From positions 2,640,001 to 2,672,000 of the forward strand of contig OY969938.1 of NCBI GenBank assembly GCA_963704755.1: 32,000 bases of DNA. Direction: 5' to 3'. The position numbers and the translations under genes were made by a program. Positions 14,830-30,340 of this stretch are shown one piece after another. The stretch comes from an uncultured Chloroflexia bacterium (GTDB lineage Bacteria > Chloroflexota > Anaerolineae > Anaerolineales > Anaerolineaceae). Position 1 is the stretch's first letter. Each line of letters begins with the position of its first letter. The notes below the pieces were generated by a model. It was given only the letters and a program-made list of their open reading frames with translations. It had not been told where the DNA came from and did not search any database.

Positions 14830-15900
14830 TTAATGGTCTTTAACAGGTTCACCGGTTGCTTCCAGATGCTGCTGGACCAACGATGAAGGTTGGTCCCCAC
14901 CGGATGGGCAAAGCATGGCCGGTTGGTGTTTGTTCAATACGGCCTGCCGGGTGGCAAAGACCGGCTCGCGCTGAATAATGGCCAGGTGTTTGACCATTAA
15001 TGCCTGGCGTTGGGCCACTTCGGCGCCCATTTCGGCCAGGGCATTTTCGATCCAGGCCTGGTAGGAGCGCACCGAGATGTAAATGGGCCGGCCCAACTGG
15101 AAGGGGATCGCGTTGACCAGTGAGGTGAGCAGCAAGGCCACGTCGGTAACGCCCGGGTGGACCAGCGGCAGCAGGTAGATGCCGTGCGGCCCATATATCG
15201 GGGCGATGTAAGCCAGCAGTTCGCCGTGGTCGGCGTATACCAGGCCCTCGTCCAGGTGGTTCGTTTGCGGTTCGGCGCTCTGCACCAGCGGCGGCACCAG
15301 CGATTGGTACAGCGTGTGAATGGGAATGCTGTCCAGGTCGCCGGTGTTTTCCCACAGGTTGGGGCTTGGGGTGGGGGGATTGGTGGGCGAGAGCTTCCAC
15401 ACCCGCTGCCAGGAGTACAGGCTAAAGCCGGCCTTACGCAGGCCCTCGATCGCGGGGCTGTTTTCGTCCACTTCGGCCAGCAGGCTGCACGCGCCGCGCG
15501 CGCCGGCTTCCCAGGCCAGGTTTTCCATCAAGGCAACCAGCCCGGGCGTGTCCAGCCCGCGCTGCGGCATCACAAAAGCCAGGTGGGCGGTCCGTTCGCT
15601 GTTGGAATAGCGCAATTGACCCACCAGAGGGGGTGTCCCGCCACCCTGGCGCAAAATACAGGTGTAACTGCCCTGTTCGAAGCGCAATGAATCCAACATG
15701 GCCCAGGGCCCAACCGGGTTGCCGCGGGTGAGGGCCAGGGCCGTATCCAGGCACTGGACTTCATTGCGGAACCTGTAGATGGTCAGAAGGTCATGCCAGG
15801 CAAGAGGGCGTGCGTCGATTTTACTTGCTCCATTTCTCAGCCTTGCCCGGGGTTGGTTTAGACGGAAGCCGCCTTTGAAAATGAATTCGTAGGGCGGCAA
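14830..15900 (-). CDS. Hypothetical protein with a GNAT-like acetyltransferase fold
   Basis: 356-aa ORF with a TTG start as in the track. GLVALMENLAWEAGARGACSLLAEVDENSPAIEGLRKAGFSLYSWQRVW resembles a GNAT core. The start codon is uncertain. Confidence 0.5.
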   Translation of the reverse strand: MPPYEFIFKGGFRLNQPRARLRNGASKIDARPLAWHDLLTIYRFRNEVQCLDTALALTRGNPVGPWAMLDSLRFEQGSYTCILRQGGGTPPLVGQLRYSNSERTAHLAFVMPQRGLDTPGLVALMENLAWEAGARGACSLLAEVDENSPAIEGLRKAGFSLYSWQRVWKLSPTNPPTPSPNLWENTGDLDSIPIHTLYQSLVPPLVQSAEPQTNHLDEGLVYADHGELLAYIAPIYGPHGIYLLPLVHPGVTDVALLLTSLVNAIPFQLGRPIYISVRSYQAWIENALAEMGAEVAQRQALMVKHLAIIQREPVFATRQAVLNKHQPAMLCPSGGDQPSSLVQQHLEATGEPVKDH

Positions 15901-16331
15901 GGACAGGAAAGACCGGCAAACGCCGGGTTAGCTGAGGTAAATTATCGGTCATCAAGTCGATGGATCAACCGCCGTGACGGCGCATCCAGCGTGTGAATTG
16001 ATTCTACCACGGGTGAAAACCCGCTTCAACTTGAGCAGCAGGGGAAGAGATTAGAGATTTGTTAATAAAGCGGTTAGCGGGTAATAGTTGTAGGATGGGT
16101 GCAGGGCTTGTTTGTGACAAAAGCAATGCACAGAACGCCAGCCAGTTAATACATTGCCCGAAACCCATCGCTATCGAAAATAGCTTTTTAATCGTCATAT
16201 TGAGCATCGATTTTTGCCCTAAAGTATCTGGCAATAAAATTGCAAAATCCCTTTGTTGTGCCCCAAACTCACTTTGCGATAACCAAACCCCGCCCAGCTT
16301 ACCAATAGGTTAAAAATGCCAAAAAAACGTA

Positions 16332-17708
16332 TCACCTATCATTTTTCTTATAACAGGTCTTTTCTTTATGGCTTAGCCGACCATATTGTCGTATCTTCGC
16401 CGCTTGATCCAATGTATAGTAATAGGATCCACAACAATAGGGAGGAACAATATTTAATACCTTTGACCAGTCATTTACTGTCGAAGTTTTGACACCTAGT
16501 TCACTTGCCAAATTTGAACTACTAATGATCTCACCATGTTGTTTTATCTGACGGAACTCTTTTAATTCGCCTTGCCTTTTAACCCATTGCGGATTACTTC
16601 TTTTTAATTCAAGTTGTTGTTGATGATATTCCCTTTGTTGTTTCCGAATTGCTAATAATTCCTCTGCTTTTAGTTTGATCAAAGACTTTTCCAATAATGA
16701 AATATTCTTCTTTTGAAGGGCTAAACCCGATTGAAACTCATAACACATTCTTTCAGTGACCAAATTCTTGGGAAAAATTGATAATCTAGCAAGCCCCTCT
16801 GTTATTTCACCCCACCTAACGGCAGCTTCAATGTCTTTAATTTGTATTTTATTAAACGCATTTCCGTGAAGAAATAAATCACGAGTTAATTCAACATCAT
16901 TACGACAATAATCGGTAACTTCTTTGACTTTCCCTTCTTTAAAAAATTGCGGTGCTTGAAGTGCACTCCCTGATTTGCACTTTCCTAAAGTAGCTCTGGC
17001 CAAGTTATCCAAAGTAACTCGAAAGCCAGGTATATTCATCATTCCTTTTTCCCAAATTGAGACGTCCCACAGCTCAAATTTTCTGTTCCCTCTTATACTT
17101 TGCCACAAAGCTCGAAGGTCGGCGGGTGTATGTGAAAAACCACGACATCTCAATTCATTCTCAATCCACTGAAGAAACAAACCCCACCTTGCATGCGCCA
17201 ACAAATCGACTGTTTTATAGCCAAGCAATTCGCGAACTCCTGGAACATATCGTTCCAGAACGCAATAGTCAAAATTGATTAAGTTAGCACCTACAATAAA
17301 AGGATATCGAGAAAGTTCTTGAACCAATGCTTCCACTCTCGACTCTGACCAAAACCGAAAAGAGTGCTGTTCATCCCAGGTAACTGCAACAGCTAAACAT
17401 AATCTGCGAGTCATCATCGAACGCCAATTGTCAAATAATGGGGAAATGCCATCTAACTCGTTTAGGCAAAAATCATAATACAGTTCTGAATCACTTATAT
17501 CATGGCCATGAGAACAATATTTCTTTATGGTATCGACGGATTTAAATTGTGCATTACCATAAAACGTCCACCAAACTGGGACCTTCGGTATCCCATTCTT
17601 TTCGATCGTGGCCCATTCAGTAGCCGACAATTTTTCAAGGCTTTTAACAGATTCTTTGGCGTCTTTAAACAATCGCTGTGTTTCAAGATCAAATACTATT
17701 CCGTTCAT
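16332..17708 (-). CDS. DEDDy-type (RNase H-fold, YprB/PolB-exo-like) 3'-5' exonuclease domain + coiled coil + C-terminal excisionase/MerR-like HTH
   Basis: Exo I VFDLET (D7, E9), Exo II NLINFDYCVL, Exo III YCRNDVELTRDLF (Yx3D). A K/E/Q-rich coiled-coil-like stretch follows (KLKAEELLAIRKQQREYHQQQLELKR). The HTH candidate is ISSSNLASELGVKTSTVNDWSKVL...YYYTLDQAAKIRQY. The gene is strikingly AT-rich relative to its flanks. Confidence 0.7.
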   Translation of the reverse strand: MNGIVFDLETQRLFKDAKESVKSLEKLSATEWATIEKNGIPKVPVWWTFYGNAQFKSVDTIKKYCSHGHDISDSELYYDFCLNELDGISPLFDNWRSMMTRRLCLAVAVTWDEQHSFRFWSESRVEALVQELSRYPFIVGANLINFDYCVLERYVPGVRELLGYKTVDLLAHARWGLFLQWIENELRCRGFSHTPADLRALWQSIRGNRKFELWDVSIWEKGMMNIPGFRVTLDNLARATLGKCKSGSALQAPQFFKEGKVKEVTDYCRNDVELTRDLFLHGNAFNKIQIKDIEAAVRWGEITEGLARLSIFPKNLVTERMCYEFQSGLALQKKNISLLEKSLIKLKAEELLAIRKQQREYHQQQLELKRSNPQWVKRQGELKEFRQIKQHGEIISSSNLASELGVKTSTVNDWSKVLNIVPPYCCGSYYYTLDQAAKIRQYGRLSHKEKTCYKKNDR

Positions 17709-17936
17709 AAACCTGGGCCATTTTCCGTGAAGAATTCTAGTGTATGCATAGAGTAGTTGAGGGTGTAAATGGCATTTCAGTGATATATAAAACTACTTGT
17801 CTTCTACTTTCTACTCGTACCCCCTTTTTGGGTCATTGGCGGGTTACGGGCAACGAATCAAACGGTAAACAACCTTATTCTTAGCCAATATTCCTAAAGA
17901 GCCCTGCACCCACTCTACGCAGAGGTCATGCCCGGA

Positions 17937-17998
17937 CACTGAATCACGGAATCACCGAATCACTAAATCACCGACCCTGACATCCGACACTTAATCAC
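17937..17998. repeat. Family B repeat: four tandem octamers NRAATCAC followed by a CCCTGACATCCGACAC motif
   Basis: tgaatcac ggaatcac cgaatcac taaatcac (17940-17971). The same motifs (CTGAATCACCGAATCAC, CCTGACACC) occur at 25085-25118. Confidence 0.75.
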
Positions 17999-18004
17999 AT
18001 TCTT

Positions 18005-19075
18005 TTACACATTAAACCGGATATTCAAAATCTCCCCGTCCTTGACCACGTACTCTTTGCCCTCCAGGCGCAGCTTGCCTTTGGCGCGCGCTTCGGTATA
18101 CCCGCCCAGCTCGACCAGGTCTTCGTAGGTGATCACCTCGGCGCGGATGAAGCCCTTCTGCAAGTCGGTGTGGATTTCTCCGGCGGCCTCGGGTGCGGTC
18201 GCGCCGCGCAGCGTGGTCCAGGCGCGGACCTCGTCCGGCCCGACGGTGAAGAAGGATTGCAGCCCGAGCAGATCATAGGACAGGCGGATCATGCGGTTGA
18301 GGCTGGGCTCGCTGATGCCGTATTCTTGCAGAAACATAGCCGCGTCTTCGGGCGGCAACTGGGCAATGTCCATCTCCAGCTTGCCTTGCAGAGCCACCAC
18401 CTGGCTGCGGCGGTGGTCGTAATTAACCTGCGGTTCGGCCTGCCCCTCGGACAGGTTGAGCACGATCAAAATGGGTTTGCGGCTGAGAAAGCCGAACCCC
18501 GCGAGTAATTTATCTTCTTCAGCGTCGATATCCACGTCGCGCAAAGGGATTTCCTGGTTCAACGTCTCGTGCAGGCGTTCGAACAACACGACTTCACGTT
18601 CGATGAGACTGCGGTCGCGCCCGCCGCCTTTTTTGCGCTCTTCGCTCAAGCGCTCCAACTTGCGCTCGACCGAGACCAGGTCGTTGAGCACAAATTCGCT
18701 GTCCATGATCGAGATGTCGCGCAGCGGATCGAGGCTGCCCTGGGGGTTGGGGACATTTTCATCCTCGAAACAACGCACCACCAGGATAAACCCGTCCACC
18801 TGGGTGAGCTGGTTGAGCAGCGTGCCAGAGATGCCGCTCTTGCCGGCCGAGCCGTCCAGCCCGGCGATATCGGAGTAGTTGACCTTGGCGTAGATGGTTT
18901 TTTTAGGGGTAAACATGCGCGAAAGAATGTCCACGCGTTCATCTGGCACGTCCACCATGGCGGTATGTACTTCGATTTTCCCGGTTGCGATCCCGGTCGG
19001 CTGGCTGCCGCGGGTGAGAGCGTTAAAGAGGGTGGTCTTTCCAGATTGGGGCAGTCCGATGATTCCCAGGCGCAT
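18005..19075 (-). CDS. ychF: Redox-regulated ribosome-binding ATPase YchF
   Basis: MRLGIIGLPQSGKTTLFNALT G1 motif and the characteristic C-terminus GKLRLEGKEYVVKDGEILNIRFNV, 356 aa. Confidence 0.92.
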   Translation of the reverse strand: MRLGIIGLPQSGKTTLFNALTRGSQPTGIATGKIEVHTAMVDVPDERVDILSRMFTPKKTIYAKVNYSDIAGLDGSAGKSGISGTLLNQLTQVDGFILVVRCFEDENVPNPQGSLDPLRDISIMDSEFVLNDLVSVERKLERLSEERKKGGGRDRSLIEREVVLFERLHETLNQEIPLRDVDIDAEEDKLLAGFGFLSRKPILIVLNLSEGQAEPQVNYDHRRSQVVALQGKLEMDIAQLPPEDAAMFLQEYGISEPSLNRMIRLSYDLLGLQSFFTVGPDEVRAWTTLRGATAPEAAGEIHTDLQKGFIRAEVITYEDLVELGGYTEARAKGKLRLEGKEYVVKDGEILNIRFNV

Positions 19076-19291: not shown

Positions 19292-19699
19292 TCATCTATG
19301 GGCCAGTAGTCCCCAAACAGCCCGAAAAATTACATAGGCGAGGCCCAGCCAAATAACGATCACGAACCCGGCATAGACCCAATTAACCGGTTTTTCTCGC
19401 CCCATTTGTTCCTCTGCTTTACGCCGAGCTTCGACCATGACTTCCGCGGGGATCATTTTTAGGGCCAGGCTGACATATAGAGGCGTCAAGATGAGGTCGT
19501 CCAGATAACCTAACACTGGAATAAAATCCGGGATTAAGTCGATAGGGCTTAAAGTGCTGGCAACAATAAATGCTGCAAAGGCCCTGGCATACCAGGGTGT
19601 GCGTGAATCCTTATAGGCATAAAACAATGCAAACACTTCACGTTTGAGTAATTGGGCCCGTTTCTTCAGCCAGGCGCCCCACGTACTTATTTTGGACAT
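19292..19699 (-). CDS. DUF1232 (YkvA-like) membrane protein
   Basis: PIDLIPDFIPVLGYLDDL signature of DUF1232, 135 aa. Confidence 0.8.
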   Translation of the reverse strand: MSKISTWGAWLKKRAQLLKREVFALFYAYKDSRTPWYARAFAAFIVASTLSPIDLIPDFIPVLGYLDDLILTPLYVSLALKMIPAEVMVEARRKAEEQMGREKPVNWVYAGFVIVIWLGLAYVIFRAVWGLLAHR

Positions 19700-19875: not shown

Positions 19876-21414
19876 CTACGCCGCCGATCCCTCCAACCCC
19901 GCCTGCAAACCACCCTCGGGCGTCCACTCCAGCCGCTCGAGCACAACGGCCTCATCCAGCCAGCCGGGGGTGACCTGGGCCCGCCGGCCGGCCGGCGCCT
20001 CCGCCAACCCCAACGGGCGTCCACACAGGCTGCGGAGCTTGCCGTCCGCCGCGATCAGGCACTCGACCGGGGTGCCCTTTGCCAGGACGTAGATTTCCAG
20101 TTCGCGCTGCGGGCTGACCCGCGCCAGCAGGCGCCGGCCATCCGTGCTGCCGGCTTGCAGCAGGTCCAGCAGCTCGTCCCGGCAGGTACGCAGGCTGTCC
20201 TTCCATAACAGGGTATAGCCGCTGACCGGCGTCTTCCAATGCACGCCGTTGAGGAACTGTCCGCCCAGGCCCGGGCCGGCCAGCTCTTCGATCCGCCCGG
20301 CCAGGGGTTCGACCCCCACCAGGTAGAAGTTTATATCAGCCAGCCCGCCGGCCAAGCTGACCCACTGCGAGCCGTTCCAGCTTTTCAGTTGCCCGCCCGG
20401 GTAAGCGTCGCTGTCTTCACGGAAGACCTGGTAGTAATTATCGTTATCTGCCCCGCCGCTGCGGCTCAGTTTGAGCCAGTATTGCTGCCCGGGCTGGATG
20501 CTCACCGGCTGGTCGAAGGCAAAGTGGACGTACCAGCGCCCGCCCTTGATCGCCTCGGCCGGCAGGCTGGCCTGCGCCAGCACGCCGCCCGGCGAGCCGC
20601 CGGCATCGCTGCACAACGCCAGGGCCAGTTCGTCCGCGCAGGCGTTGACCACTTTCAAGTCCAGGGCCACCTCGCTCAGCAGCCAGGGTCCATATCCGGT
20701 CTGGAAGCTCTGCGCCAGCACGGCGTCCAGGTTGGCCGTGCGGCCCAGGCTTTGCGCGTTTTGGGCCGGTTCGACGAAGCCCTCGTAATCCAGGTGAATC
20801 TCGGGATAAACCCAGGCCAGGGTGGAGAACCAGCCGCTGCACAGCAGCCGTACCTGGGCGGTCTGGGCGGGCAGCAGGCCGGTCCAGGGCCGGGTAGCCA
20901 TGGCCGGCAGCGGCGCTGCGGCCGCCTGCAAGCGGGCATCTCGCGCCGACAGGGCCTCGGCTTCCAGCAGCGAGCCCATTTGCAGGATGCTTTCTTTACG
21001 GCCGAAGCTGCGCCGGCTGTGGCCGTCCTCGGCCCAGGGGGTCAGGCAGGTCTCGCCGGCCCAATCGACGGCCGGCCGGCGGCGGTGATAGAGCACCGCC
21101 GTGCGGTTGGCCAGCTCATCCAGGTCGTAGGCGCAGGTCAGCCCGCCGTAGGCAATTTCGATCCGGCGCACGAAACCCCACCAGCAGGCCTGCCCGTCCC
21201 CGGTTGAAATCAGCACCGGTTTTCTGAGCATGTCCGGCGCCCACTGCGGAAAATTCAGCCCTTTCATTAAAAGGGAGATCTCGCCTTGCAGTTCGGCCTG
21301 TTCCGGCCCGCCCATGGCGGCCCAGCTCATATGCTTTACCTGCAAGTCGAACTCCGGCAGGATGGCCGGGCTGTCTTCACGGTGGAAGAATTGGATAGTC
21401 AAGGGCTCGTTCAT
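19876..21414 (-). CDS. Phage-like structural protein of unknown function (tail/receptor-binding candidate)
   Basis: 512-aa ORF with high coding-like GC3. Its start overlaps the upstream gene's stop by 4 nt (21411-21414). No motif recognised; it is the last gene of the module. Confidence 0.6.
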   Translation of the reverse strand: MNEPLTIQFFHREDSPAILPEFDLQVKHMSWAAMGGPEQAELQGEISLLMKGLNFPQWAPDMLRKPVLISTGDGQACWWGFVRRIEIAYGGLTCAYDLDELANRTAVLYHRRRPAVDWAGETCLTPWAEDGHSRRSFGRKESILQMGSLLEAEALSARDARLQAAAAPLPAMATRPWTGLLPAQTAQVRLLCSGWFSTLAWVYPEIHLDYEGFVEPAQNAQSLGRTANLDAVLAQSFQTGYGPWLLSEVALDLKVVNACADELALALCSDAGGSPGGVLAQASLPAEAIKGGRWYVHFAFDQPVSIQPGQQYWLKLSRSGGADNDNYYQVFREDSDAYPGGQLKSWNGSQWVSLAGGLADINFYLVGVEPLAGRIEELAGPGLGGQFLNGVHWKTPVSGYTLLWKDSLRTCRDELLDLLQAGSTDGRRLLARVSPQRELEIYVLAKGTPVECLIAADGKLRSLCGRPLGLAEAPAGRRAQVTPGWLDEAVVLERLEWTPEGGLQAGLEGSAA

Positions 21415-22751
21415 GGAGTTGCATACCTGGCGCCGTAAGCGATGCGCACCCTCAGGCTGTCGTTGACCGGCATACCCGCGTCCGTTTCGAAAAGGAAATA
21501 GACCCGGTTAGGCCGCCCGGGGTGCAGATACAGCGGCTGGCCCACCAGGGTATGGCTGGTGGACCGGCTTTCGCCGTCTGCGTCGCAGCTATAGACCTGC
21601 CCGTGCGGGCCATCCAGGACCAGTTGCTGAGCCTGGGAACAGCCGCTGATCGCCCGCAGCATGGCCCACTGTTCGGTGGGCAGGAGCTGCATGAAGTCCA
21701 GGCTCAGCCGGCGGCCGGCCGGGTCGGGACTTTCGCCCCACAGTTCTAGCGTCAGCGGCCCGTAACTGCCGGCGCTCGACGGCACCGGCGGCAGGTTGAG
21801 CGCCGGCCCGACTGCCATTGAGCTGCCCGCCTCGACCCGCGTCTGGGCGGTCTGTTCCAGCACCGCGCTGTTTTCGCACAGCTTCCAGCGCAGAAAGGTC
21901 GTAGTCGCCGGCGCGTTGTTCAGGCGCAGCACCGGCCGGAAAGCCCGGCCGGCGGCATAGCCCAGGCGGGCCGCATCCAGCTCCCAGGTCAGCAGTCGGG
22001 CTTCTTCGTCGCCCTGCCAATCCACCTGGCAGCAGGCGCCGTTGCTGCAATCGTCTGAGGGCAGGACCTGAACCTGCCCGGCAGCGCTGCCGGGGCTGGC
22101 CAGTTCGCCTTCCAGCACGTGCGCAAAGGCGCCCTGGCTGTCCCGCAGGTCCGTCCCGCCGGCCACGATCACATCCAACAACCGCCGCTGCGGGGCCGGA
22201 CCCAGGTCGAGCGTCAGGGTAGCCGGAGCCGGCAGTGAGCCGGGCAGGTCTTCGGGCAGGATATCGACATAATTCTGGTGACCGGCGGTCCCGTCGCAGT
22301 GGTTGAGCACGGCCAGGCCGTTCCAGACCCCCGCGCCGTTGGCATTGTGCAGCGGCAGCATATTGCCCGGCTCGTTCCAGTTATTCTCGCGCAGCAGGAA
22401 AAGGCGCAGCCCCTGGAACCCGTGCATGCGGTCGCTGGTGCCGTGCCCCAGCAGTTCGATCCGTCCGTCCAGCACCCGGCTGGTCAGCGGATCCTCCCGG
22501 CTGGCCGCCTGGATTTGCAGAAAAATCTCCTCGTCCCGGCCCCGGGCCAGGGCCAGCCACTTTTCCAGTTGGTACAGCCAGGCGCGGATGGTGCTGCCTT
22601 TGAGATCGATAAAGATCTCTTCCTCGACCAGGTTTGTCCCGGCCGGGCGTGGCCCGGCCTCGATGCGCGCCCCGCGCACCGGCTCCACCGGTTCCGGCCC
22701 GTGCAGCACAATCCCGGTTCCATCGATTTTTCGTAAAGATAGTTTGTACAT
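21411..22751 (-). CDS. Phage-like structural protein of unknown function (tail/baseplate candidate)
   Basis: 446-aa ORF translationally coupled to the 512-aa gene. No motif recognised. Confidence 0.6.
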   Translation of the reverse strand: MYKLSLRKIDGTGIVLHGPEPVEPVRGARIEAGPRPAGTNLVEEEIFIDLKGSTIRAWLYQLEKWLALARGRDEEIFLQIQAASREDPLTSRVLDGRIELLGHGTSDRMHGFQGLRLFLLRENNWNEPGNMLPLHNANGAGVWNGLAVLNHCDGTAGHQNYVDILPEDLPGSLPAPATLTLDLGPAPQRRLLDVIVAGGTDLRDSQGAFAHVLEGELASPGSAAGQVQVLPSDDCSNGACCQVDWQGDEEARLLTWELDAARLGYAAGRAFRPVLRLNNAPATTTFLRWKLCENSAVLEQTAQTRVEAGSSMAVGPALNLPPVPSSAGSYGPLTLELWGESPDPAGRRLSLDFMQLLPTEQWAMLRAISGCSQAQQLVLDGPHGQVYSCDADGESRSTSHTLVGQPLYLHPGRPNRVYFLFETDAGMPVNDSLRVRIAYGARYATP

Positions 22752-22771
22752 GGTTCCTCGGAAGAAGAGCG

Positions 22772-23100
22772 GTTAGCTCTTAGCTTTTAGCGGTTAGCTC
22801 TTAGCTCTTAGCTTTTAGCTGTTAGCGGTTAGCTCTTAGCTCTTAGCTTTTAGCTGTTAGCTATTGGCTTTTAGCTGTTGGCTCTTAGCTATTGGCTGTT
22901 GGCTGTTAGCTTTTAGCAGTTGGCTGATGGCTTTTAGCGATTAGCTATTGGCTGCAGGCGATTTACTCTCGGCTTTTTGTCCTTAGCTTTTACTGGCACC
23001 TTGGCCGATAGACTAAACGCTAATGGCTAACAGCTAACAGCTAACCGCTAGCCGCTAACAGCTAAGCGCTAAGCGCTAACCGCTACTCGCTAAAAGCTAT
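22772..23100. repeat. 47 in-phase heptamer units: about 26 clean NTTAGCT/NTTGGCT units, a degenerate centre, then about 13 units of the reverse complement (NNGCTAA)
   Basis: Parsed by hand. The left side reads gttagct cttagct tttagcg gttagct ... to 22953. Degenerate units run to ~23009. The right side reads agactaa acgctaa tggctaa cagctaa cagctaa ccgctag ccgctaa cagctaa gcgctaa gcgctaa ... to 23100. The 7-nt phase is never broken. Confidence 0.9.
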
Positions 23101-23533
23101 TCCACCCCGTCGGTTGCGGATCTTTTCCATCCGGGTAGGGTGGGTCGGCGGACTTTTGCAGCCCGGCCAGCCGGTAGCTTTGCAGGCTCGCCAGAGCCTT
23201 TTCGAAGCTGGCCAGTTGGGCCTGCCCGGCCTGCAGGGCTGCCTGCGCAGCGGCCTGGTCGAAGTGAAAGGCTGCGAGCTGTTCGGCCGAGCGGGTGATC
23301 AAGGCATAGCCCAACGCGCCGCGGATGATCAGGGCAAAGTGATGCCTGGAGAAATTGGTCGGGTTGCTTTCACCGTCCAGGCCTTCCAGCACCCACACCT
23401 GCCCGGAAGCATTCAGCAGGTCCTCGTAGGCCTGGCGGATGCCGGCGATCAGTTCCGCGTCGCTCCATACCAGTTCATTGGGATCGGCCAGCGCATCGCG
23501 CATACGTGCCACAATTTCGTCGGTGTCGCTCAT
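23090..23533 (-). CDS. Small phage-like protein (head-tail adaptor/connector candidate)
   Basis: The ATG at 23533 overlaps the lysozyme stop (ATGA overlap). The N-terminus MSDTDEIVARMRDALADPNELVWSDAELIAGIRQAYEDL resembles gp6-like connector N-termini. The assignment is tentative. Confidence 0.55.
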   Translation of the reverse strand: MSDTDEIVARMRDALADPNELVWSDAELIAGIRQAYEDLLNASGQVWVLEGLDGESNPTNFSRHHFALIIRGALGYALITRSAEQLAAFHFDQAAAQAALQAGQAQLASFEKALASLQSYRLAGLQKSADPPYPDGKDPQPTGWNSF

Positions 23534-24327
23534 GAGGTATGCAGCTCCGGGTGGGCCTGCCATAGCAGGCGTAGTATTTCTTCGTCGCTGATCTCAAGCG
23601 CCGGCTCGCCGGCCGGGACCCGCCCGCACCATTCTTCCAGGTCGGCGGGTGTGCCGTTGAACAGGTTCAGGTCAAGGGCCGTGCTGCAGCCCGGCAGGAC
23701 GAAACGGTCGCCGCTGAACTGCCAGAAAGCCCACTCCCGGCAGCCTTTAGGCAGCGGCGGTCCTTTTGGGGTGGGCAGCAGGTCGTTTTGCAGCTCCTCC
23801 CAGGTGGCCTGGATGCGCCCGGCCGGGTAGGGATATTGGGCCAGCCACAACGGCCAGCCGGCCAGCCAGTCCAGCATCGGGCGGGCGTAATCATTGACGA
23901 AGGACGTGCGGGTGTAGATCAGCACCGGTTTAGCGCAGGCCTGGCGCAGTCCCTGGGCTACTGCCAGGGCCGATGCGCTGATCTGCTCCGGCGAGGCCAG
24001 CCCGGCCACTTTGCCGCTCAGCCATTCGTTCCACGAGCTCCAGTACTGCTCCACGTCCACGGCGGCGAAGTCGAAGGCCTGGTTGGCGACTGCCTGGCAA
24101 AAGTTATCCACCTGGCGCTGGGCGTTCAGGGTCGGGTCGCACCAGTGATACACCCCGGTGATCATCCCGACTGACTGGGCCCCGCTCAAGTGCATCCCCA
24201 GGGCCGAATCGCGGCTGGCGCTGCCCTGGCTGGCTTTGGCGATTGCAAAACGGACACCGGCGGCGGCCAGCAAATCCCAATCGACCTGCGGCTGCCAGCG
24301 GCTGACGTCTATACCTAATGTGTGCAT
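23530..24327 (-). CDS. GH25-family muramidase (endolysin)
   Basis: GIDVSRWQPQVDWDLLAAAGVRFAIAKASQG and FAAVDVEQY motifs typical of GH25 lysozymes. A strong RBS AAAGGAGA lies upstream of the ATG at 24327. Confidence 0.85.
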   Translation of the reverse strand: MHTLGIDVSRWQPQVDWDLLAAAGVRFAIAKASQGSASRDSALGMHLSGAQSVGMITGVYHWCDPTLNAQRQVDNFCQAVANQAFDFAAVDVEQYWSSWNEWLSGKVAGLASPEQISASALAVAQGLRQACAKPVLIYTRTSFVNDYARPMLDWLAGWPLWLAQYPYPAGRIQATWEELQNDLLPTPKGPPLPKGCREWAFWQFSGDRFVLPGCSTALDLNLFNGTPADLEEWCGRVPAGEPALEISDEEILRLLWQAHPELHTS

Positions 24328-24401
24328 CCTGTCTCCTTTCGGTACTCCTCAGTGCATGGGTTAAGAATTTCCCGAACCTGATAATTTGCCTTGCCAGTGC
24401 T

Positions 24402-24574
24402 GAAAAATCCCCCCTGGCCCCCCTTTCCAAAGGGGGGAAAGAAAGAAACACAATGGACCCCCTTTTTAGATGAGGGCAATACAAGCCAGATGATTGGATC
24501 ATACACAGCCTCACGGGGGGCAAATGATCTATCTTTCCCCCCTTTTTCAAGGGGGGTAGGGGGGATTCTTTTTC
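24402..24574. repeat. Family C: inverted pair of ~45-nt elements, each with a poly-C/poly-G hairpin
   Basis: Unit A is gaaaaatcccccctggCCCCCCTTTccAAAGGGGGGaaagaaaga (24402-24446). The reverse complement of unit B (24529-24574) reads gaaaaagaatcccccctaCCCCCCTTgaaaAAGGGGGGaaagataga. Confidence 0.8.
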
Positions 24575-24640
24575 GCACGCGCCCCGGCAAGTTGTAAAGG
24601 TTCGTTCCATCAGATCGAGCCAATGGATATCAGCGCTTGT

Positions 24641-24844
24641 TCAAGCGCCCCGGCCGGCGTCTTCGATCGCCACGCCGGTCGAATAGACTGCCAGCGCGGC
24701 GATCGCGGCCTGGACGGCCTGCCAGACGGTCAATTCGCAACTGCTCAGCCCGGCCGCGATCGCGGCCAGCGCCACCAACAGCGCCCAGAACTTGCGGGAG
24801 CGCAAAATCATGCCAATTTGTTTCCAAAAATCGATGTTATCCAT
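24641..24844 (-). CDS. Holin-like small membrane protein (2 predicted TM)
   Basis: 67 aa from the ATG at 24844 (RBS AAAGAGGA); an alternative TTG lies 6 codons upstream at 24862. It has two hydrophobic helices and sits upstream of the endolysin. Confidence 0.55.
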   Translation of the reverse strand: MDNIDFWKQIGMILRSRKFWALLVALAAIAAGLSSCELTVWQAVQAAIAALAVYSTGVAIEDAGRGA

Positions 24845-24865
24845 GATGAAGTCCTCTTTCAATGA

Positions 24866-25131
24866 TGCAGTGGTTCGGTGTTCCTGTGTTGCGGTGGGGA
24901 GGTGTCAAATGTCGGGGGGGTGTTGCAGTGATTCGGTTTTACGGTGATTTAGTGGGGTGTCAGGTGTCGGGGAAGTGTTACATTGATTCGGTGTTACATT
25001 TTTGGGGTGGGTTAAGGGTCTCGACAGGTCACTCCAACATCCTGGCGCTTCAAAACTGAAGAACTGTCGCACCAAAACACCTCCCTGACACCTGAAACAC
25101 TGAATCACCGAATCACTGCAACACCTCCCCC
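24866..25131. repeat. Family B: nested direct and inverted repeats forming a long imperfect hairpin
   Basis: The left arm 24914-24977 (gggggggtgttgcagtgattcggttttacggtgatttagtggggtgtcaggtgtcggggaagtg) pairs with the right arm 25078-25131 (cacctccctgacacctgaaacactgaatcaccgaatcactgcaacacctccccc). Extra direct copies of gcagtgRttcggt and ggtgtcaNNtgtcgggg lie at 24866-24917. Confidence 0.8.
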
Positions 25132-25138
25132 GGATTAT

Positions 25139-27049
25139 CTACTCCGCCACGTTCGATTTATACAGCGGCCGGTAATCCGCCACGAAGATCGAGCACCAAT
25201 GGCGCACTTTCATGCGGATCTCGTCGTTGGTGAACAGCGCCCCCGAAGTTTCCTGGTCGGCGATGTAGATTTCGGGGGTCAGGCCAAAGCGTTCGGCCAG
25301 GATGATCCCCGGGGCCAGGCGCGGGTCCGCCACGGCGGCCCAATCGGTTGTGGCGTTGAACTCCGGGACGGTGATCACATCCCCCATCTCGCCGCGCTGC
25401 AGGTTCTCGGAAAAGATATTCGCCTCGCGCTCGAAGGAGGGATAAAGAATGCGCATCCCGGCCAGGCGCAGGCTGCGCGGCACCAGCATGTAGCGGGCGT
25501 CCAGGGCCAGCTTGGGTCCGCTGCCCGGGGCCAGCATGGGCTGATCGAAGATAGCCTGGCTGGCGGTTTCCCAGGTCTCGGCGCTCAGCGCGGCACTGCC
25601 CAGGTTATGGTGACTCGCGTCGTTGAACACGTTTTTGTTATCGGCCATTTGCGGGCCGGTGCCCGAATTGGCCGTGAAGATCCCGGCAACCTGGGCCGAG
25701 ATGCGTCGCAAGGCGGCCGAGGCCAGTTTGCGCGGGTACTGACGCAGCTTGTGGGTCTCGTCGCGCTCGAACATTTCCAGGGTCAGGCCGATGTAGCCGC
25801 CGTACTTGCCCCAGGTGCCCACTTCCTCCGAGTCGTTGATGGCCAGCTCCTCGTACGTGTCGCCTTCGTCGATGCCGGGCAAGGCGGTCACTTCGCCCAC
25901 GAGCACCCCGGTGATATCGTGCAGGTTGCTGAAATGCTCCACCGATACGATCAACTCCCACCAGCGGTAGCCGCTGCGGCCCAATTCTTGCCAGCCCATG
26001 ACCACCAGCTTGTTGAGCGTATCTTTGAGCAAGCCGGGCAGGCTGGCCCGCGAGGCGAACTGCACTCGTTCCGGGTAATAGCCGCCGTAGAATTCGTTAT
26101 CGCCGGTCAGCAGGGTATACATCTCGCGGATGCCGCTCAGGCGAGCCGCGTGCAGCCCCGCCAGTTTCTCCGGGCGGGCTGCGCCTAACAGATCGTAGGC
26201 CGCTGCTTCGAGCTGGTCCTCGCTGGAATACATCCCGTGAATGCGTGCCGGTCCTTGCACCACATTGCTCCCGGTCAAGTCGCTGACCAGGCTGCGCCCA
26301 TCCTCGATGGCCTGTTGCAGGCTCTCGGTTGTGAAGCTGGAATCTTTGAAGCGGCTGCGGATGCGCTCCCCGACGGCGGCCGGCAGGTGAGCGGCGGCCA
26401 GGCTGGTTTCCAGCAGCAGGTTGGAAAGCTGAGCTTGCACTTCGGCGGCGGGCGCCGCATCGACGATAGGAGTGGGGTTGCTTGAATTGGTTGGCATGGA
26501 AGAGTCTCCTTTGAAGGGTGGAATGGATTGGTTGTAAAGAGCACGCAAAAAGCTGCCGCCGCGGGCCGGTTCCAGCACCAGGTCCACGCTCAAAACACGC
26601 AGAATGCGCCGGACGTCCTGCCCGTTGGCTTCAAAGACCAGGTCGGCCGAAAAGCCCACGTCGGGTTTGGGGTTCTCGCCGGCCAGCATTTCGCGCCCCA
26701 AGGCGCTCAACAGCGGACCGGCCGGGCCAATTGGGCGCAGGTGCAGGCGGATCCCGTTGGACTGCGGGTCGAAAGCCGGGGAATGGCACACGCCGGCCAG
26801 GTCGCGCACGGAATGGCCTTCCCAGGCGTGATCGACGTAACACTCGCAGCCGTCCCACAACGCCAGCGACTCGGCCAGCACAGCCGCGGAGAACTGCCAG
26901 CCGTTGCCTTCACCGGCCGAAATGGCCAGGATCTCGAACTCGCCGGCGCCGGTGGGCTGTCCCGCGCAGTGGATGTGGGTGCTGTGCTGGTCGGGCTTAA
27001 CCAGGGTTTGGGTGGAAGAATCAGGTTCGATGAGGGTGTTTTGTTCCAT
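25139..27049 (-). CDS. Putative scaffold/prohead-protease-like domain fused to an HK97-fold-like major capsid protein
   Basis: 636-aa ORF immediately after the portal gene. It has an N-terminal ~190-aa domain (FEILAISAGEGNGWQFSAAVLAESLALWDG..VDH), a low-complexity linker (SSMPTNSSNPTPIVDAAPAAE) and a C-terminal ~400 aa of capsid-like size and position. The assignment rests on position and architecture, not on a verified motif. Confidence 0.6.
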   Translation of the reverse strand: MEQNTLIEPDSSTQTLVKPDQHSTHIHCAGQPTGAGEFEILAISAGEGNGWQFSAAVLAESLALWDGCECYVDHAWEGHSVRDLAGVCHSPAFDPQSNGIRLHLRPIGPAGPLLSALGREMLAGENPKPDVGFSADLVFEANGQDVRRILRVLSVDLVLEPARGGSFLRALYNQSIPPFKGDSSMPTNSSNPTPIVDAAPAAEVQAQLSNLLLETSLAAAHLPAAVGERIRSRFKDSSFTTESLQQAIEDGRSLVSDLTGSNVVQGPARIHGMYSSEDQLEAAAYDLLGAARPEKLAGLHAARLSGIREMYTLLTGDNEFYGGYYPERVQFASRASLPGLLKDTLNKLVVMGWQELGRSGYRWWELIVSVEHFSNLHDITGVLVGEVTALPGIDEGDTYEELAINDSEEVGTWGKYGGYIGLTLEMFERDETHKLRQYPRKLASAALRRISAQVAGIFTANSGTGPQMADNKNVFNDASHHNLGSAALSAETWETASQAIFDQPMLAPGSGPKLALDARYMLVPRSLRLAGMRILYPSFEREANIFSENLQRGEMGDVITVPEFNATTDWAAVADPRLAPGIILAERFGLTPEIYIADQETSGALFTNDEIRMKVRHWCSIFVADYRPLYKSNVAE

Positions 27050-27065
27050 AGAATGCCTTTCTGTA

Positions 27066-27295
27066 TTTTTTCTCCTTCCCCCTTAATGAGGAAAGGCCGG
27101 GATGGGGTTTGCGCTGATCGGCTCGAGCATTTGCCTGTCCGTAACGCCTCTTACGTTTCTTGCTCCTTCCCCCTCGCAGGGGGCAGGCCGGGATGAGGGT
27201 TTGCGCTAGTTGGCTCAAGCATTTGCCTGCTTGTAACGCTCCTCAAGTTTCTTTCTCCTTTTCCCTCGCAGGGGGCAGGCCGGGATGGGGTCTTC
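27066..27295. repeat. Family A: about 2.5 tandem copies of a ~90-nt unit between the portal and capsid genes
   Basis: Unit 2 (27155-27246) is tttcttgctccttCCCCCTcgcAGGGGGcaggccgggatgagggtttgcgctagttggctcaagcatttgcctgcttgtaacgctcctcaag. Unit 1 (27066-27154) is a diverged copy. Unit 3 (27247-27295) is partial and overlaps the portal stop codon. Confidence 0.85.
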
Positions 27296-28715
27296 ATTTC
27301 GGCTCCCCGGTCAGCAGATCCACCTTGCCGGGGGTTGGCTGGCTGTGACCCGCCCCGGTTGATCCGGTAGTGGCCGGCCCGGCTTGCCGGCCGCGCGCCA
27401 GCAGCTCGTCCACTTCGGCGACTTCGCCGAAGAAGCGGTAAGCCAGGCGCAGCATCTCCGCGTCATCGATCAGTCCGCGGTCGCGCAGTTGCGCCAGTAC
27501 CGCCATGATCTGGTTGCCGGCCATACCCAGGGCCACGTTGTCGCGCGCCGAAAGGTCGGCGCCATTGACCTCCACCTGCGCCTGCGGGTTAACCCGCCCG
27601 CGGCCGCTGCCGCGCTGCTCCACCAGGGCTTTCCGGTTGAGCGCCACCTGCAGCACGTCATGGATCAGCCACAGGAAATAGGCCTGGCGCTGCTCGAAGC
27701 GCCGGTAGGTCGGCCCGCCGGCTGCCTCGGCCGTGGTGCGGGTGGACGATTCGGGCTCGGCCAGAAAGTGCAGCGGCACACCGGCGCCGGCCGCGATCAT
27801 TTTCTTCAGCGCCAGGCCGTCGGTGTTGGCCTCGTCTGCTTCCAGGCGCGGGTTGATCACCTCCCAGGTCTCGTTTTCATCGGCTACCAGGATCGAGCCC
27901 GGCGTGGGCGGGTTGGCGTTCAGGCGCTGCTGGCGGGCCAGGCGGTCGGCCTCGCTGGTAAAGCGCGAGCGCACCAGGTACAGGAAGGCCGTGCGGAAGC
28001 GGTTCAGCCGGGCGCGGTCTTCCAGCCAGTTGGCATAGCGGCTTAGCCAGCGTAACAGCGGGCCCAGGTCCGATTCGCCCCACAAGCCTCCGGCCGGCCG
28101 GTTGATGGCGTAGTGCAGCATGACCGAGTTGAAGCTGCCGTCTTCCCGTGGGCAGTCCGTTTGGGGATCGTAGGCCGGCCACAGCCGCACCTCCCCCAGG
28201 TTATCCCCACCCGAGTACACGCTAAAACCGGTCTCCTGTTCCACGTCATTGGCCCGGCAGTGGATCTCCTGGACCTGACCGGCCGGCACCGCCCGCACAT
28301 AGCTCATCCCACCGGCGTCGCTGGAGACCAGCACGAACAGGTTGCCGGTGCGGGTCAGCTCGTCGCACCACTCGCCGGCACGCACGTCCATACGGTTGAG
28401 ACGGTGGTTCCAGAACTCGTCCAGGAAGTGCGCCGTGGCCGGGTGTTTGCAGCGCACGGCGATGCCTTCGCCGACCACGTACTGGCTGGTCAGTTCGACC
28501 AGCCGGCGGGCCAACGGGTTGACCCGCCAGGCCTCCAGGGCTTGCTCTTGCAGATTCTGGCGGTCGCCGCTCGGCCGGTCGAGGAGATTATCGCCGGAGG
28601 CCCGTGCGCCGATCAAAAAGGTGGCCTCGCTCTCGGCGCTGAAACAAGCGTGAACCTGCCGCCGGATCTCGTCGCGGAATAGGTAGGCCACCAGGCTGGA
28701 ATAAATTGGTTTCAT
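27294..28715 (-). CDS. Phage portal protein
   Basis: 473 aa from the ATG at 28715 (RBS GGGAGGG, 12 nt after the TerL stop). The 5' extension in the track (to 28901) overlaps terL and is not credible. Size and position (directly after TerL) support a portal. Confidence 0.7.
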   Translation of the reverse strand: MKPIYSSLVAYLFRDEIRRQVHACFSAESEATFLIGARASGDNLLDRPSGDRQNLQEQALEAWRVNPLARRLVELTSQYVVGEGIAVRCKHPATAHFLDEFWNHRLNRMDVRAGEWCDELTRTGNLFVLVSSDAGGMSYVRAVPAGQVQEIHCRANDVEQETGFSVYSGGDNLGEVRLWPAYDPQTDCPREDGSFNSVMLHYAINRPAGGLWGESDLGPLLRWLSRYANWLEDRARLNRFRTAFLYLVRSRFTSEADRLARQQRLNANPPTPGSILVADENETWEVINPRLEADEANTDGLALKKMIAAGAGVPLHFLAEPESSTRTTAEAAGGPTYRRFEQRQAYFLWLIHDVLQVALNRKALVEQRGSGRGRVNPQAQVEVNGADLSARDNVALGMAGNQIMAVLAQLRDRGLIDDAEMLRLAYRFFGEVAEVDELLARGRQAGPATTGSTGAGHSQPTPGKVDLLTGEPK

Positions 28716-28726
28716 AAACCCTCCCA

Positions 28727-30340
28727 TCAGAATCCCCGGTCCAGGTCTTTCAGTGGGTCGCGGGCGGGCACCACCAGCGTCTCGCCGCTGCTCGACCAGG
28801 GCTGCTGGTCCAGCAGCGAACACAGCGCCGCTGAAATGACCAGGTCGTCGTGCACCAGTTCCCCGTTTTGCGGGTCGCGGGTCCCATCCGGCACCCCCCA
28901 ACGCATGCGCTTATCCGTCCCCGGCAGGATCTGGTATTGGCAGAAGGAGAGTTGTTGCTTGAAGAGAGAATGGAGATTGGAGAATAGAGAATAGTTGGCT
29001 CTTTCGCGGCCTTCTGGCCTTTCTTTACTAATCTCTACTCTCTTTTCACTATTCTCTTCTTTTGGCTCTTTCCATCTCCCGCTATCGATCACCGCCAGGA
29101 AGTCCCAGCCCAGTTTGCTTTTGCTGGACGAGTTGAACAGGAACGGCAGCACCTTGCCGGGAAAGGCCCGCCCGAGGAAGCTGGCCAGCCCGGCTCCAAC
29201 ACCGGTGGCATCCACCACCAGGTAGCGCGCTCGCCAGGTCTCGGCCAGGCCGCGCAGGTCGTTGTACAGTTGGGTGTGGCGCACCCCCACCCACTGGCGG
29301 CGCAGCACGCAGCGGTAGGTAGGCGCCTGCACCAGCGGATCGGCCAGCGTGGCCAGGTCCACCTCGACGATCGTCAGCGCGGTCGCATCCCGGCCCGGGT
29401 TGTGCAGGTTCCAACTGCCCGGGTCCAGGTTGGATTCGGCGCTCTCGTCGATCCCGGCCACGTCCAGCAGCAGAGCGTAGATACGCCCGCTCGATGGCTG
29501 TTGCTGTACGGCATGGTTTCCCTGCATCCGTTCCAGGCGGTCCGGCGGGAACATGCCACCTTCGCTGTCGATCTCCTCGCTGAAGAACTGGGTACGCACC
29601 ATCGGGTTGAAGCGTCCCAGGCGGGCCACCTGCTCGGCCACGAATAGGCCATATTTGGGCACTTCCGCGGCCACCCGGTCGGCGTCGGCCTGGAAGACCC
29701 GCCGGCGTCCATCCCGTGCCTGAGCTTCGCGTGAGCCGCGCAGCTCGCGCGCCAGCAGCGTCCGGCTGGTCCAGGCCGTGCCCCAGAAAACGCGCGTGGC
29801 GTTGGTCGAGGCCGCCATAGGCGCGATTTCCTTGTCGTATTTGGCGATCTCCACGTCCTGGGCTTCGTCCACTTCCAACAGTGCGCTGGCGGTGGCCCCC
29901 ACGATGTTGGCCTCCTTCGAGCCGCTCAAGAAGAAAATCCGCGCCTGGCCGACCCGGTAGATGTAGCCGGATTCCTTCTCCCAATCGCCCTGCACCAGCG
30001 GGTTTTTGCGCAGCACTCGTTCCAGGCGGCGCATGGCGTTGATCGATTGCGGTTTCAGGGTGGGTGAAATTTTGATGATTTCGGCGTCCGTCTCGTGCAG
30101 GTAAGTCAGCAGGTAGGATTCGAGTTGGGCCTGCACTTCGTTCTTTCCGGATTGGCGCGGGAAGAGCACCACGAAGCTCAGCCCCTGCTTGAGGATGACC
30201 GATTCGGCGATCGCCCGGATCACTTCGGTCTGGTAACTGCGCAGTTTCAGGTGAGCACAGGCTGCCGTGAAGGCAACCGGGTCTCTCAATATGCTTGTCA
30301 CCGGGGGAACCAACGTTTCGTCAACCATAATCATCCTCAT
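28727..30340 (-). CDS. terL: Terminase large subunit
   Basis: Walker A FPRQSGKN and Walker B LLEVDEAQD. Nuclease-domain acidic motifs ALLLDVAG, YLVVDATGVG and HDDLVISAALC. 537 aa. Confidence 0.85.
   Translation of the reverse strand: MRMIMVDETLVPPVTSILRDPVAFTAACAHLKLRSYQTEVIRAIAESVILKQGLSFVVLFPRQSGKNEVQAQLESYLLTYLHETDAEIIKISPTLKPQSINAMRRLERVLRKNPLVQGDWEKESGYIYRVGQARIFFLSGSKEANIVGATASALLEVDEAQDVEIAKYDKEIAPMAASTNATRVFWGTAWTSRTLLARELRGSREAQARDGRRRVFQADADRVAAEVPKYGLFVAEQVARLGRFNPMVRTQFFSEEIDSEGGMFPPDRLERMQGNHAVQQQPSSGRIYALLLDVAGIDESAESNLDPGSWNLHNPGRDATALTIVEVDLATLADPLVQAPTYRCVLRRQWVGVRHTQLYNDLRGLAETWRARYLVVDATGVGAGLASFLGRAFPGKVLPFLFNSSSKSKLGWDFLAVIDSGRWKEPKEENSEKRVEISKERPEGRERANYSLFSNLHSLFKQQLSFCQYQILPGTDKRMRWGVPDGTRDPQNGELVHDDLVISAALCSLLDQQPWSSSGETLVVPARDPLKDLDRGF

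Follow-up and report, generated by a model that had tools for sequence, protein, structure and literature searches.

What is a single AT-rich gene doing at a break in an otherwise conserved order of core genes, and what might its product do for the cell that carries it? The question is raised by a 32,000-nucleotide (nt) stretch of DNA from an uncultured Chloroflexia bacterium of the family Anaerolineaceae (GenBank assembly GCA_963704755.1, contig OY969938.1, positions 2,640,001 to 2,672,000), referred to here as the window, which is the scope of all the results given below for this locus. Between ychF and a conserved hypothetical gene, p356, the window holds an islet of about 2 kb with one long open reading frame (ORF), the product of which is predicted to fuse a DEDDy exonuclease domain to a long charged helix and a winged helix-turn-helix (HTH) domain. 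Our preferred reading, to which we give a probability of roughly one half, is that the islet is recently acquired foreign DNA carrying one intact accessory gene, and that the gene encodes a DNA-tethered 3'-5' exonuclease acting in conflict with invading or mobile DNA.

The islet stands out by composition. Guanine-plus-cytosine (GC) content was scanned in 300-nt and 500-nt steps; in 300-nt windows it was 0.33 to 0.44 over approximately 16050-17900 and 0.58 to 0.66 in both flanks, with the right side regaining 0.61 to 0.64, and the four 500-nt windows covering 16001-18000 were the sole ones in all 32 kb to fall below 0.49. Positions 16001-18000 have 39.9% GC against 59.6% for the remaining window, and the transition at each border is completed within about 100 to 150 nt, so that the sharply bounded AT-rich island described in a first-pass annotation of the sequence is borne out. 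The only long ORF of the islet (16332-17708, minus strand, 458 amino acids [aa]) has an N terminus that aligns with the starts of its homologues and a third-position GC (GC3) of 0.32, compared to 0.68 to 0.84 in the larger neighboring genes that were measured.

The islet also interrupts conserved synteny. A metagenomic relative, L098, encodes a YchF protein and an R3H/AAA protein that are 77% and 79% identical to their counterparts in the window, and it is collinear with the window on both sides, in the order p446-p512-tRNA-Leu(caa)-ychF-[slot]-p356-R3H/AAA-tmk-PPIase-PrsW. The slot is occupied in L098 by pdxS-pdxT (PLP synthase) at native GC content (L098 4536-6037), a gene pair that the window lacks, and in the window by the AT-rich exonuclease gene. 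At the DNA level the two loci cease to match at about 18015 and match again from about 15810; these limits and the GC profiles delineate a nonsyntenic segment at 15811-18014 with a foreign core at about 16000-18004. The DNA comparison with L098 revealed no remnants of pdxS or pdxT in the islet. Three Bellilinea ychF loci were not collinear with the window, and the exonuclease gene was absent from the ychF locus of these three relatives as well as from that of L098. A contig with an 87%-identical YchF is short, and its DNA downstream of ychF is unrelated to the window. The window YchF is 83 to 84% identical to that of Bellilinea and 80% identical to that of Leptolinea, and the window proteins fall in singleton clusters. 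Because L098 is collinear on either side but carries pdxS-pdxT in the slot, the comparison provides direct evidence for a break in the core-gene order at the islet, an order that is otherwise conserved; either of the two states could be ancestral. The extreme composition and the synteny break together support a foreign origin of the segment. Atypical composition and interrupted synteny are two of the marks of a genomic island; of the others, a mobility gene and flanking direct repeats or a target-site duplication, none was found, the only repeat bracketing the gene being a 19-nt inverted repeat. Specifically, the islet contains no integrase or transposase ORF and its borders show no target-site duplication, no att-like repeat was detected, and the best direct repeat joining the flanks was not significant, its score being attained by 290 of 300 shuffles. 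An Rfam scan matched only the tRNA.

The N-terminal two-thirds of the protein, approximately residues 1 to 310 (16779-17708, minus strand), form a predicted DEDDy exonuclease domain resembling the proofreading domains of PolA and PolB. All three motifs reported in the first-pass annotation are present, namely, DLE (D7 and E9), NxxxFD (N142 and D147), and Yx3D (Y267 and D271), and an alignment of 15 subfamily members shows no variation at D7, E9, N142, F146, D147, Y267, C268, and D271. The order D-x-E, D, Y-x3-D was found by regular expression in 90 of 172 retrieved proteins. By profile, the protein matches PHROG 403 ("DNA polymerase exonuclease subunit") at 4e-10; in a Pfam scan it scored 15.2 bits against PF10108, below the cutoff of 24, MerR_1 also stayed under its threshold, and PF13482 was not reported at E<=0.1. 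It had no match in NCBIfam, and a sequence search of the PDB with the exonuclease-family profile returned nothing at E<=1. An AlphaFold2 model of the 458-aa protein (mean predicted local distance difference test score [pLDDT] of 78.7, exceeding 90 in the exonuclease core) shows an RNase H-like alpha/beta fold in which each motif falls where it is expected: D7 and E9 in a strand at 4-10, D147 in a helix at 143-151, and Y267 and D271 in a helix at 261-285. In Foldseek searches with the model, the best PDB matches were the exonuclease domains of T7 DNA polymerase and archaeal PolB (probability 0.99 to 1.0), and the best viral matches were small stand-alone phage exonucleases (9e-7). On motifs and model, then, the protein is a member of the DEDDy 3'-5' exonuclease superfamily with a complete predicted two-metal active site.

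The closest stand-alone 3'-5' exonucleases are those of PF13482 (RNase_H_2, YprB type) and PF10108 (DNA_pol_B_exo2), among them the Chloroflexota proteins of about 180 aa and the small phage exonucleases (PHROG 403); they have the same DEDD RNase H-like fold and share the Exo motifs D.E, N...FD, and YC..DV.LT with the window protein, to which they are similar in both sequence and structure. The window protein falls below both Pfam thresholds, whereas its compact relatives pass that of PF13482, and these relatives lack the two insertions, the long helix, and the winged HTH. Insertion 1 (approximately residues 22 to 98; 17415-17645, minus strand; pLDDT of 71 to 83) lies between Exo I and Exo II, where the motif spacing is 135 in the window protein against a median of 59 in compact relatives. 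The long insertion noted at this place in the first-pass annotation is thus real, but it amounts to about 76 extra residues rather than about 100, and a second one had been missed. This insertion 2 (approximately residues 170 to 226; 17031-17201, minus strand) lies between Exo II and Exo III, where the spacing is 125 against a median of 74 (about 51 aa extra), and is modeled as helical, with helices at 169-189 and 195-206. Both insertions were delimited by motif spacing and alignment. Insertion 1 varies in length within the subfamily and is missing in three members (P0026, P0029, and P0032). Insertion 2 is found in 15 of 15 long-type members, with the motif ARWGLFL.W, and as judged from the alignment is the constant hallmark of the long subfamily.

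Following the exonuclease domain is a long helix rich in K, E, Q, and R (residues 338 to 390; 16539-16697, minus strand), modeled by AlphaFold2 as helices 338-371 and 373-390 at a pLDDT of about 80. Over its approximately 55 residues, 51% are K, R, E, D, or Q, and the hydrophobic share at heptad positions a and d is 0.47, compared to 0.26 elsewhere. Because this heptad periodicity is weak, we describe the helix as a charged helical arm, which may form a coiled coil or act as a spacer made of a single alpha-helix; of the coiled coil proposed in the first-pass annotation, the long charged helix stands and the heptad pattern is poor. The only other database protein having both the helix and the HTH tail is P0026, a 422-aa protein from a JGI metagenome, which is 37% identical to the window protein overall and 40% identical in the tail.

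The tail itself (approximately residues 394 to 447; 16368-16529, minus strand) had been described as an excisionase- or MerR-like HTH, and this held up. The tails of the window protein and P0026 separately gave subthreshold matches to several HTH families at the same position, and on the window tail taken alone the MerR_1 profile scored a borderline 21.2 bits, just short of its cutoff of 21.6. A profile made from the two tails matched the DNA-binding domain of RacA (PDB 5i41) at E=6e-4 with about 30% identity. When modeled alone, the tail gave a pLDDT of 79.7 and the topology of a winged HTH, with a strand at 23-25, helices at 26-33 and 37-46, a strand at 57-61, and a helix at 62-72. Foldseek aligned the tail with RacA at a root mean square deviation (rmsd) of 2.0 A and with pSK1 Par at 1.2 A (TMt 0.84), both at a probability of 1.0, with further matches to BmrR, NmlR, BldC, CarH, and MtaN; an excisionase was also listed. 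Profile and predicted fold together confirm that the tail is a winged HTH of the MerR type, with RacA and pSK1 Par as its nearest matches. A search for homologues of the tail by itself in a word-indexed database gave nothing at E<=1, and the same index missed P0026, which was found by exhaustive HMMER searching.

To place the protein among its relatives, an exhaustive HMMER search was run against 1.84 billion cluster representatives. There were 828 relatives at E<=1e-3 and 13 at E<=1e-30, and those 13 clusters make up a distinct "long" subfamily, with homologues that are 35 to 42% identical to the window protein. Among 51 compact relatives inspected, 26 stood alone as proteins of about 180 aa, a form common in Chloroflexota, and 23 formed the C-terminal domain of MrfA-type helicases (DEAD, Helicase_C, WHD_HRQ1, MZB), which carry distant homologues of the window exonuclease. 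Hosts of the family belong to poorly studied lineages, the Anaerolineae and environmental Pseudomonadota. In all, this is a rare, uncharacterized subfamily of a very familiar nuclease fold, and the domain combination of the window protein was seen only twice in the databases searched.

The company kept by these homologues is telling in several cases. The gene for P0031 (L091) directly follows a tyrosine integrase gene and lies between genes for an Old-family nuclease (PADLOC 3.7e-49) and for a type II restriction endonuclease and methyltransferase; further along are an excisionase-type HTH_17 gene, a large serine recombinase, and ParA, and this region (6512-16418 of L091) is a defense island on an integrative element. 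P0031 also gave a weak PADLOC match to a homing-endonuclease model (E=0.005). The start of the P0027 gene (L092/L093) shares 32 nt with the 3' end of a gene (L092 1911-7386) for a 1,352-aa protein that combines an N-terminal DUF4365 domain (PD-(D/E)xK type) with TPR and has a weak PADLOC match (PDC-M02A, 8e-4). That overlap suggests a two-gene operon, and hence a candidate two-gene system. P0026 (L088-L090) is encoded between two IS110-type transposase genes, and the gene for P0002 (L002) follows a HicA toxin gene. P0006 (L001/L003) and P0005 (L083/L084) are singletons among ordinary genes, with a GC content 11 to 15 points below their flanks, and the GC content of the gene was lower than that of its flanks in L001, L002, L003, and L083. 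A more distant, compact relative, P0010 (L086), lies three genes from an integrase. Whether homologues lie in defense islands or next to integrases, the check proposed in the first-pass annotation, has a partly positive answer, given by L091 together with the DUF4365-TPR, IS110, and HicA contexts. Two contexts were ordinary, but the uniform pattern of housekeeping genes in conserved neighborhoods that would have spoken against the first-pass reading was not seen. The family is rare, patchy, and compositionally foreign in most of its hosts, and it occurs in variable or defense-type neighborhoods.

It is from this last pattern that we infer a role in conflict. The winged HTH would dock the protein on DNA, at specific repeats or nonspecifically, probably as a dimer or higher oligomer by analogy with RacA, Par, and MerR proteins. 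The rigid charged helix of about 55 residues could then keep the nuclease head away from the anchor, and the head would degrade DNA from accessible 3' ends. The protein would act as a stand-alone or modular nuclease effector against invading or mobile DNA, with its oligomeric state, DNA substrate, and sequence specificity, like the defense role, being predictions of this model. More tentatively, the long-insertion DEDDy subfamily may as a whole be an unrecognized effector of prokaryotic immunity, acting alone or in modules such as the DUF4365-TPR pairing, and the RacA/Par-type HTH of the window protein might aim it at targets such as the repeat-rich origins or centromere-like sites of plasmids or phages, so that one polypeptide would destroy invading replicons in a sequence-directed manner.

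Known systems offer partial likenesses. Old- or Nhi-type proteins are stand-alone defense nucleases, and the window likewise presents a single nuclease gene in a foreign slot, with the relative P0031 encoded in a defense island. RacA of Bacillus subtilis, pSK1 Par, and BldC are minimal MerR-type winged HTH proteins, to the first of which the tail is related by sequence and fold, with rmsd values of 1.2 to 2.0 A for RacA and Par. RacA combines a winged HTH with a predicted coiled coil, and its DNA binding has a specific and a nonspecific mode (PMC4914108). In RacA, as in the window protein, the winged HTH is joined to a long predicted helical or coiled-coil region; in contrast, the winged HTH of the window protein is C-terminal, reversing the domain order, and a nuclease replaces the anchoring or partition module. 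The proofreading domains of family A (T7) and family B (archaeal, Pol II, and herpesvirus) DNA polymerases, which gave the best PDB fold matches, share the DEDDy chemistry with the tyrosine in a long helix, but the window protein has no polymerase domain and the E values are modest (4e-3 and weaker). The TM-scores to these domains are low because of the insertions and extra domains.

Several observations weigh against the proposed action on invading or mobile DNA. The islet itself lacks any mobility gene, target-site duplication, or partner gene. The window protein had no match in PADLOC-DB v2.0.0 at E<=1, and P0026 and P0027 had none at E<=0.01, which agrees with the first-pass annotation, where the architecture was not recognized as a named defense system; in the literature we did not find a DEDDy exonuclease-winged HTH fusion as a defense architecture, nor anything specific on this exonuclease type in defense. 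The homologue contexts recovered were seven distinct ones, a small sample, and two of them (L001/L003 and L083), like the window itself, show ordinary chromosomal neighbors only. Relatives were absent from 50,697 phage records, 72,556 plasmid records, and IMG/VR contigs, so that composition and patchiness alone speak for mobility. The weak heptad pattern makes dimerization via the helix uncertain, and the winged HTH could serve for mere autoregulation.

These points have to be set against three other explanations. The gene might be the cargo or relic of a mobile element, having served an integrative element, transposon, or phage-like element, for example in replication, recombination, or antidefense, and having been left after its decay, with no current role in the host; we consider this possible but doubtful. 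The first-pass annotation had in fact proposed either an antiphage or antiplasmid effector or a relic of this kind. The foreign character common to both proposals is upheld by composition and the synteny break. The extremeness of the composition would suit a relic, as would the relatives that adjoin an integrase (L091) or sit between IS110 genes (L088-L090) and the fact that PHROG 403 and the small phage exonucleases are the nearest annotated relatives; yet an integrase, transposase, target-site duplication, or att-like direct repeat is missing in and beside the islet, and the phage, plasmid, and IMG/VR collections yielded no relatives. The 19-nt inverted repeat (left arm at 16090-16108, plus strand; right arm at 17900-17918, minus strand; 17 of 19 positions matching) does bracket the gene, but it is not a feature of the family. 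Proximity is likewise ambiguous: tRNA-Leu is 1.1 kb and a cluster of phage-like structural genes 1.9 kb away, but ychF, of native composition, separates the islet from both, and part of the phage-like cluster (p446 and p512) is conserved in L098. An intact ORF with all catalytic residues kept also fits poorly with a relic. Still less does the gene look like silent or decaying DNA with an unexpressed, functionless ORF, which we regard as very improbable: a GC3 of 0.32 implies poor codon adaptation, and no strong promoter or Shine-Dalgarno-like motif was identified upstream of the gene, but 458 codons have stayed open in sequence of 38% GC, a composition rich in stop codons, every catalytic and structural motif is kept in comparison with homologues at 35 to 42% identity, and the tail domain is conserved with P0026.

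The remaining alternative, a horizontally acquired DNA repair exonuclease of the MrfB/YprB or proofreading type, which trims damaged or mismatched 3' ends and is recruited to DNA by its HTH, appears unlikely. It draws on the nearest large group of relatives, PF13482 with its YprB-type RNase H-like domain, on the compact relatives noted above (26 of 51 stand-alone, 23 of 51 fused to MrfA-type helicases), and on MrfB (YprB) of B. subtilis, a distantly related 3'-5' DNA exonuclease with a fold resembling polymerase proofreading domains. MrfB takes part in the repair of mitomycin C damage, and its structure closely resembles the DEDDy exonuclease domains of PolB enzymes, but it is a DEDDh enzyme (His258) with a C-terminal TPR domain and the partner MrfA (PMC11194089). 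The window protein is not MrfB: its Exo III motif is Y267-x3-D271 and not of the DEDDh type, it has an HTH in place of the TPR domain and gave no TPR match, and no MrfA-type helicase is encoded in the 32 kb. Nor did an MrfB structure appear in the PDB profile search (E<=1) or among the top 50 PDB fold matches. At this locus the gene is not shared by relatives, and a foreign composition and patchy distribution would be unusual for a core repair gene. Helicases of the YprA/MrfA family are, moreover, central to several defense systems (2025 preprint, 10.1101/2025.09.15.676423), and since they are so widely used in defense, kinship to MrfA-fused exonucleases cannot separate repair from defense.

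If the preferred reading of a DNA-anchored exonuclease directed against foreign DNA is correct, the protein would add a new enzyme class to single-gene defense effectors, a DEDDy exonuclease of the proofreading type fused to a winged HTH like that of partition proteins, and would exemplify how a nuclease with no target choice of its own can acquire one from a small DNA-binding module. The family is an extremely rare one, from Anaerolineae and environmental Pseudomonadota, whose defense repertoires are largely uncharted. Even if the gene has no role in defense, the locus offers a clean, datable replacement of a single gene in a conserved core-gene slot, and the Exo II-Exo III insertion is an uncharacterized elaboration of a very well known fold.

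The repeats and small ORFs of the islet were also considered as parts of a larger unit. The 19-nt inverted repeat is unique in the window, and its score was attained by 1 to 3 of 200 to 300 shuffles. We rejected it as the termini of a transposable unit: it does not extend past 19 nt, has no target-site duplication, and does not recur around homologues, where the only other scoring inverted repeat (L083) has its arms inside flanking genes. An octamer tandem repeat of the CACCGAAT type (4.4 copies; 17937-17974), just downstream of ychF, had been taken to mark the right edge of the island. The repeat is real, but CACCGAAT-like octamers also occur at 24865-24946 and 25098-25121 (7 matches in total against 0.22 expected by chance), and a family so dispersed in the window is neither a boundary nor part of the insert. 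The 76-aa hydrophobic ORF at 16004-16234, which had been suggested as a partner gene, has a GC3 of 0.44, with no third-position skew, as well as no family match and no counterpart at homologue loci; it was rejected together with a plus-strand ORF at 16059-16313, which likewise has no family matches and no counterpart at homologue loci.

An imperfect palindrome of 20 bp, CTAGTGTATGCATAGAGTAG, precedes the exonuclease gene at 17737-17756 (16 of 20 positions, counted by eye), 29 to 48 nt before the ATG, and a run of GTAG-containing direct repeats, GAGTAGAAAGTAGAAGACAAGTAG, lies likewise upstream at 17793-17816. The palindrome and the GTAG repeats are possible operator sites for the winged HTH. 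A similar sequence, TAGAAGGTAG, occurs about 30 nt before the ATG of P0026 (L089), although by a rough estimate such a match between two regions of about 300 nt is expected by chance.

Of the genes bordering the islet, ychF (18005-19075, minus strand) was identified correctly in the first-pass annotation, matching Pfam YchF-GTPase_C (PF06071) at 8e-37 and having relatives that are 77 to 93% identical. On the left, p356 (14830-15900, minus strand; 356 aa) had been called GNAT-like, an assignment that failed: neither GNAT nor any other Pfam family, PHROG, or PDB entry matched, and the gene is best described as a conserved hypothetical with a 57%-identical homologue in the syntenic L098. Its true start is probably downstream of the annotated TTG. 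A terminator-like hairpin (CCGGCGTTTGCCGG followed by a T-rich tail; 15913-15926, minus strand), the only one in the region, lies about 400 nt past the stop codon of the exonuclease gene and shortly before the TTG annotated as the start of p356, a position that implies that transcripts either have a long untranslated 3' part or read through from the islet toward p356. Beyond ychF, a DUF1232 gene (19292-19699, minus strand) between p512 and tRNA-Leu is of intermediate composition (GC, 0.49; GC3, 0.51). L098 has no DUF1232 gene there and a p512-tRNA gap of about 50 nt, and the gene looks like a second, smaller insertion beside the tRNA.

Just past tRNA-Leu, the minus strand at 19876-30340 carries the phage-like structural cluster, with a terminase large subunit (28727-30340), a portal (27294-28901; PHROG 10963, 7e-28), a protease-capsid fusion (25139-27049), and a GH25 lysozyme (23530-24327), all on the minus strand. 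The cluster is 62 to 70% GC, at or above the level of the host, and includes no integrase within the window. Two large unannotated genes next to it (19876-21414 and 21411-22751) have counterparts that are about 43% identical beside tRNA-Leu-ychF in L098, and because of this conservation the cluster may be an old conserved element, domesticated or resembling a gene transfer agent, rather than a recent prophage. Heptamer arrays, AGCTGTT in about 27 copies and CTAACCG in about 12 copies, were seen at 22768-22954 and 23013-23093, respectively, between ORFs 21411-22751 and 23090-23563, and a 92-nt tandem repeat (27094-27291; 2.2 copies, 85% matches) separates the capsid and portal genes.

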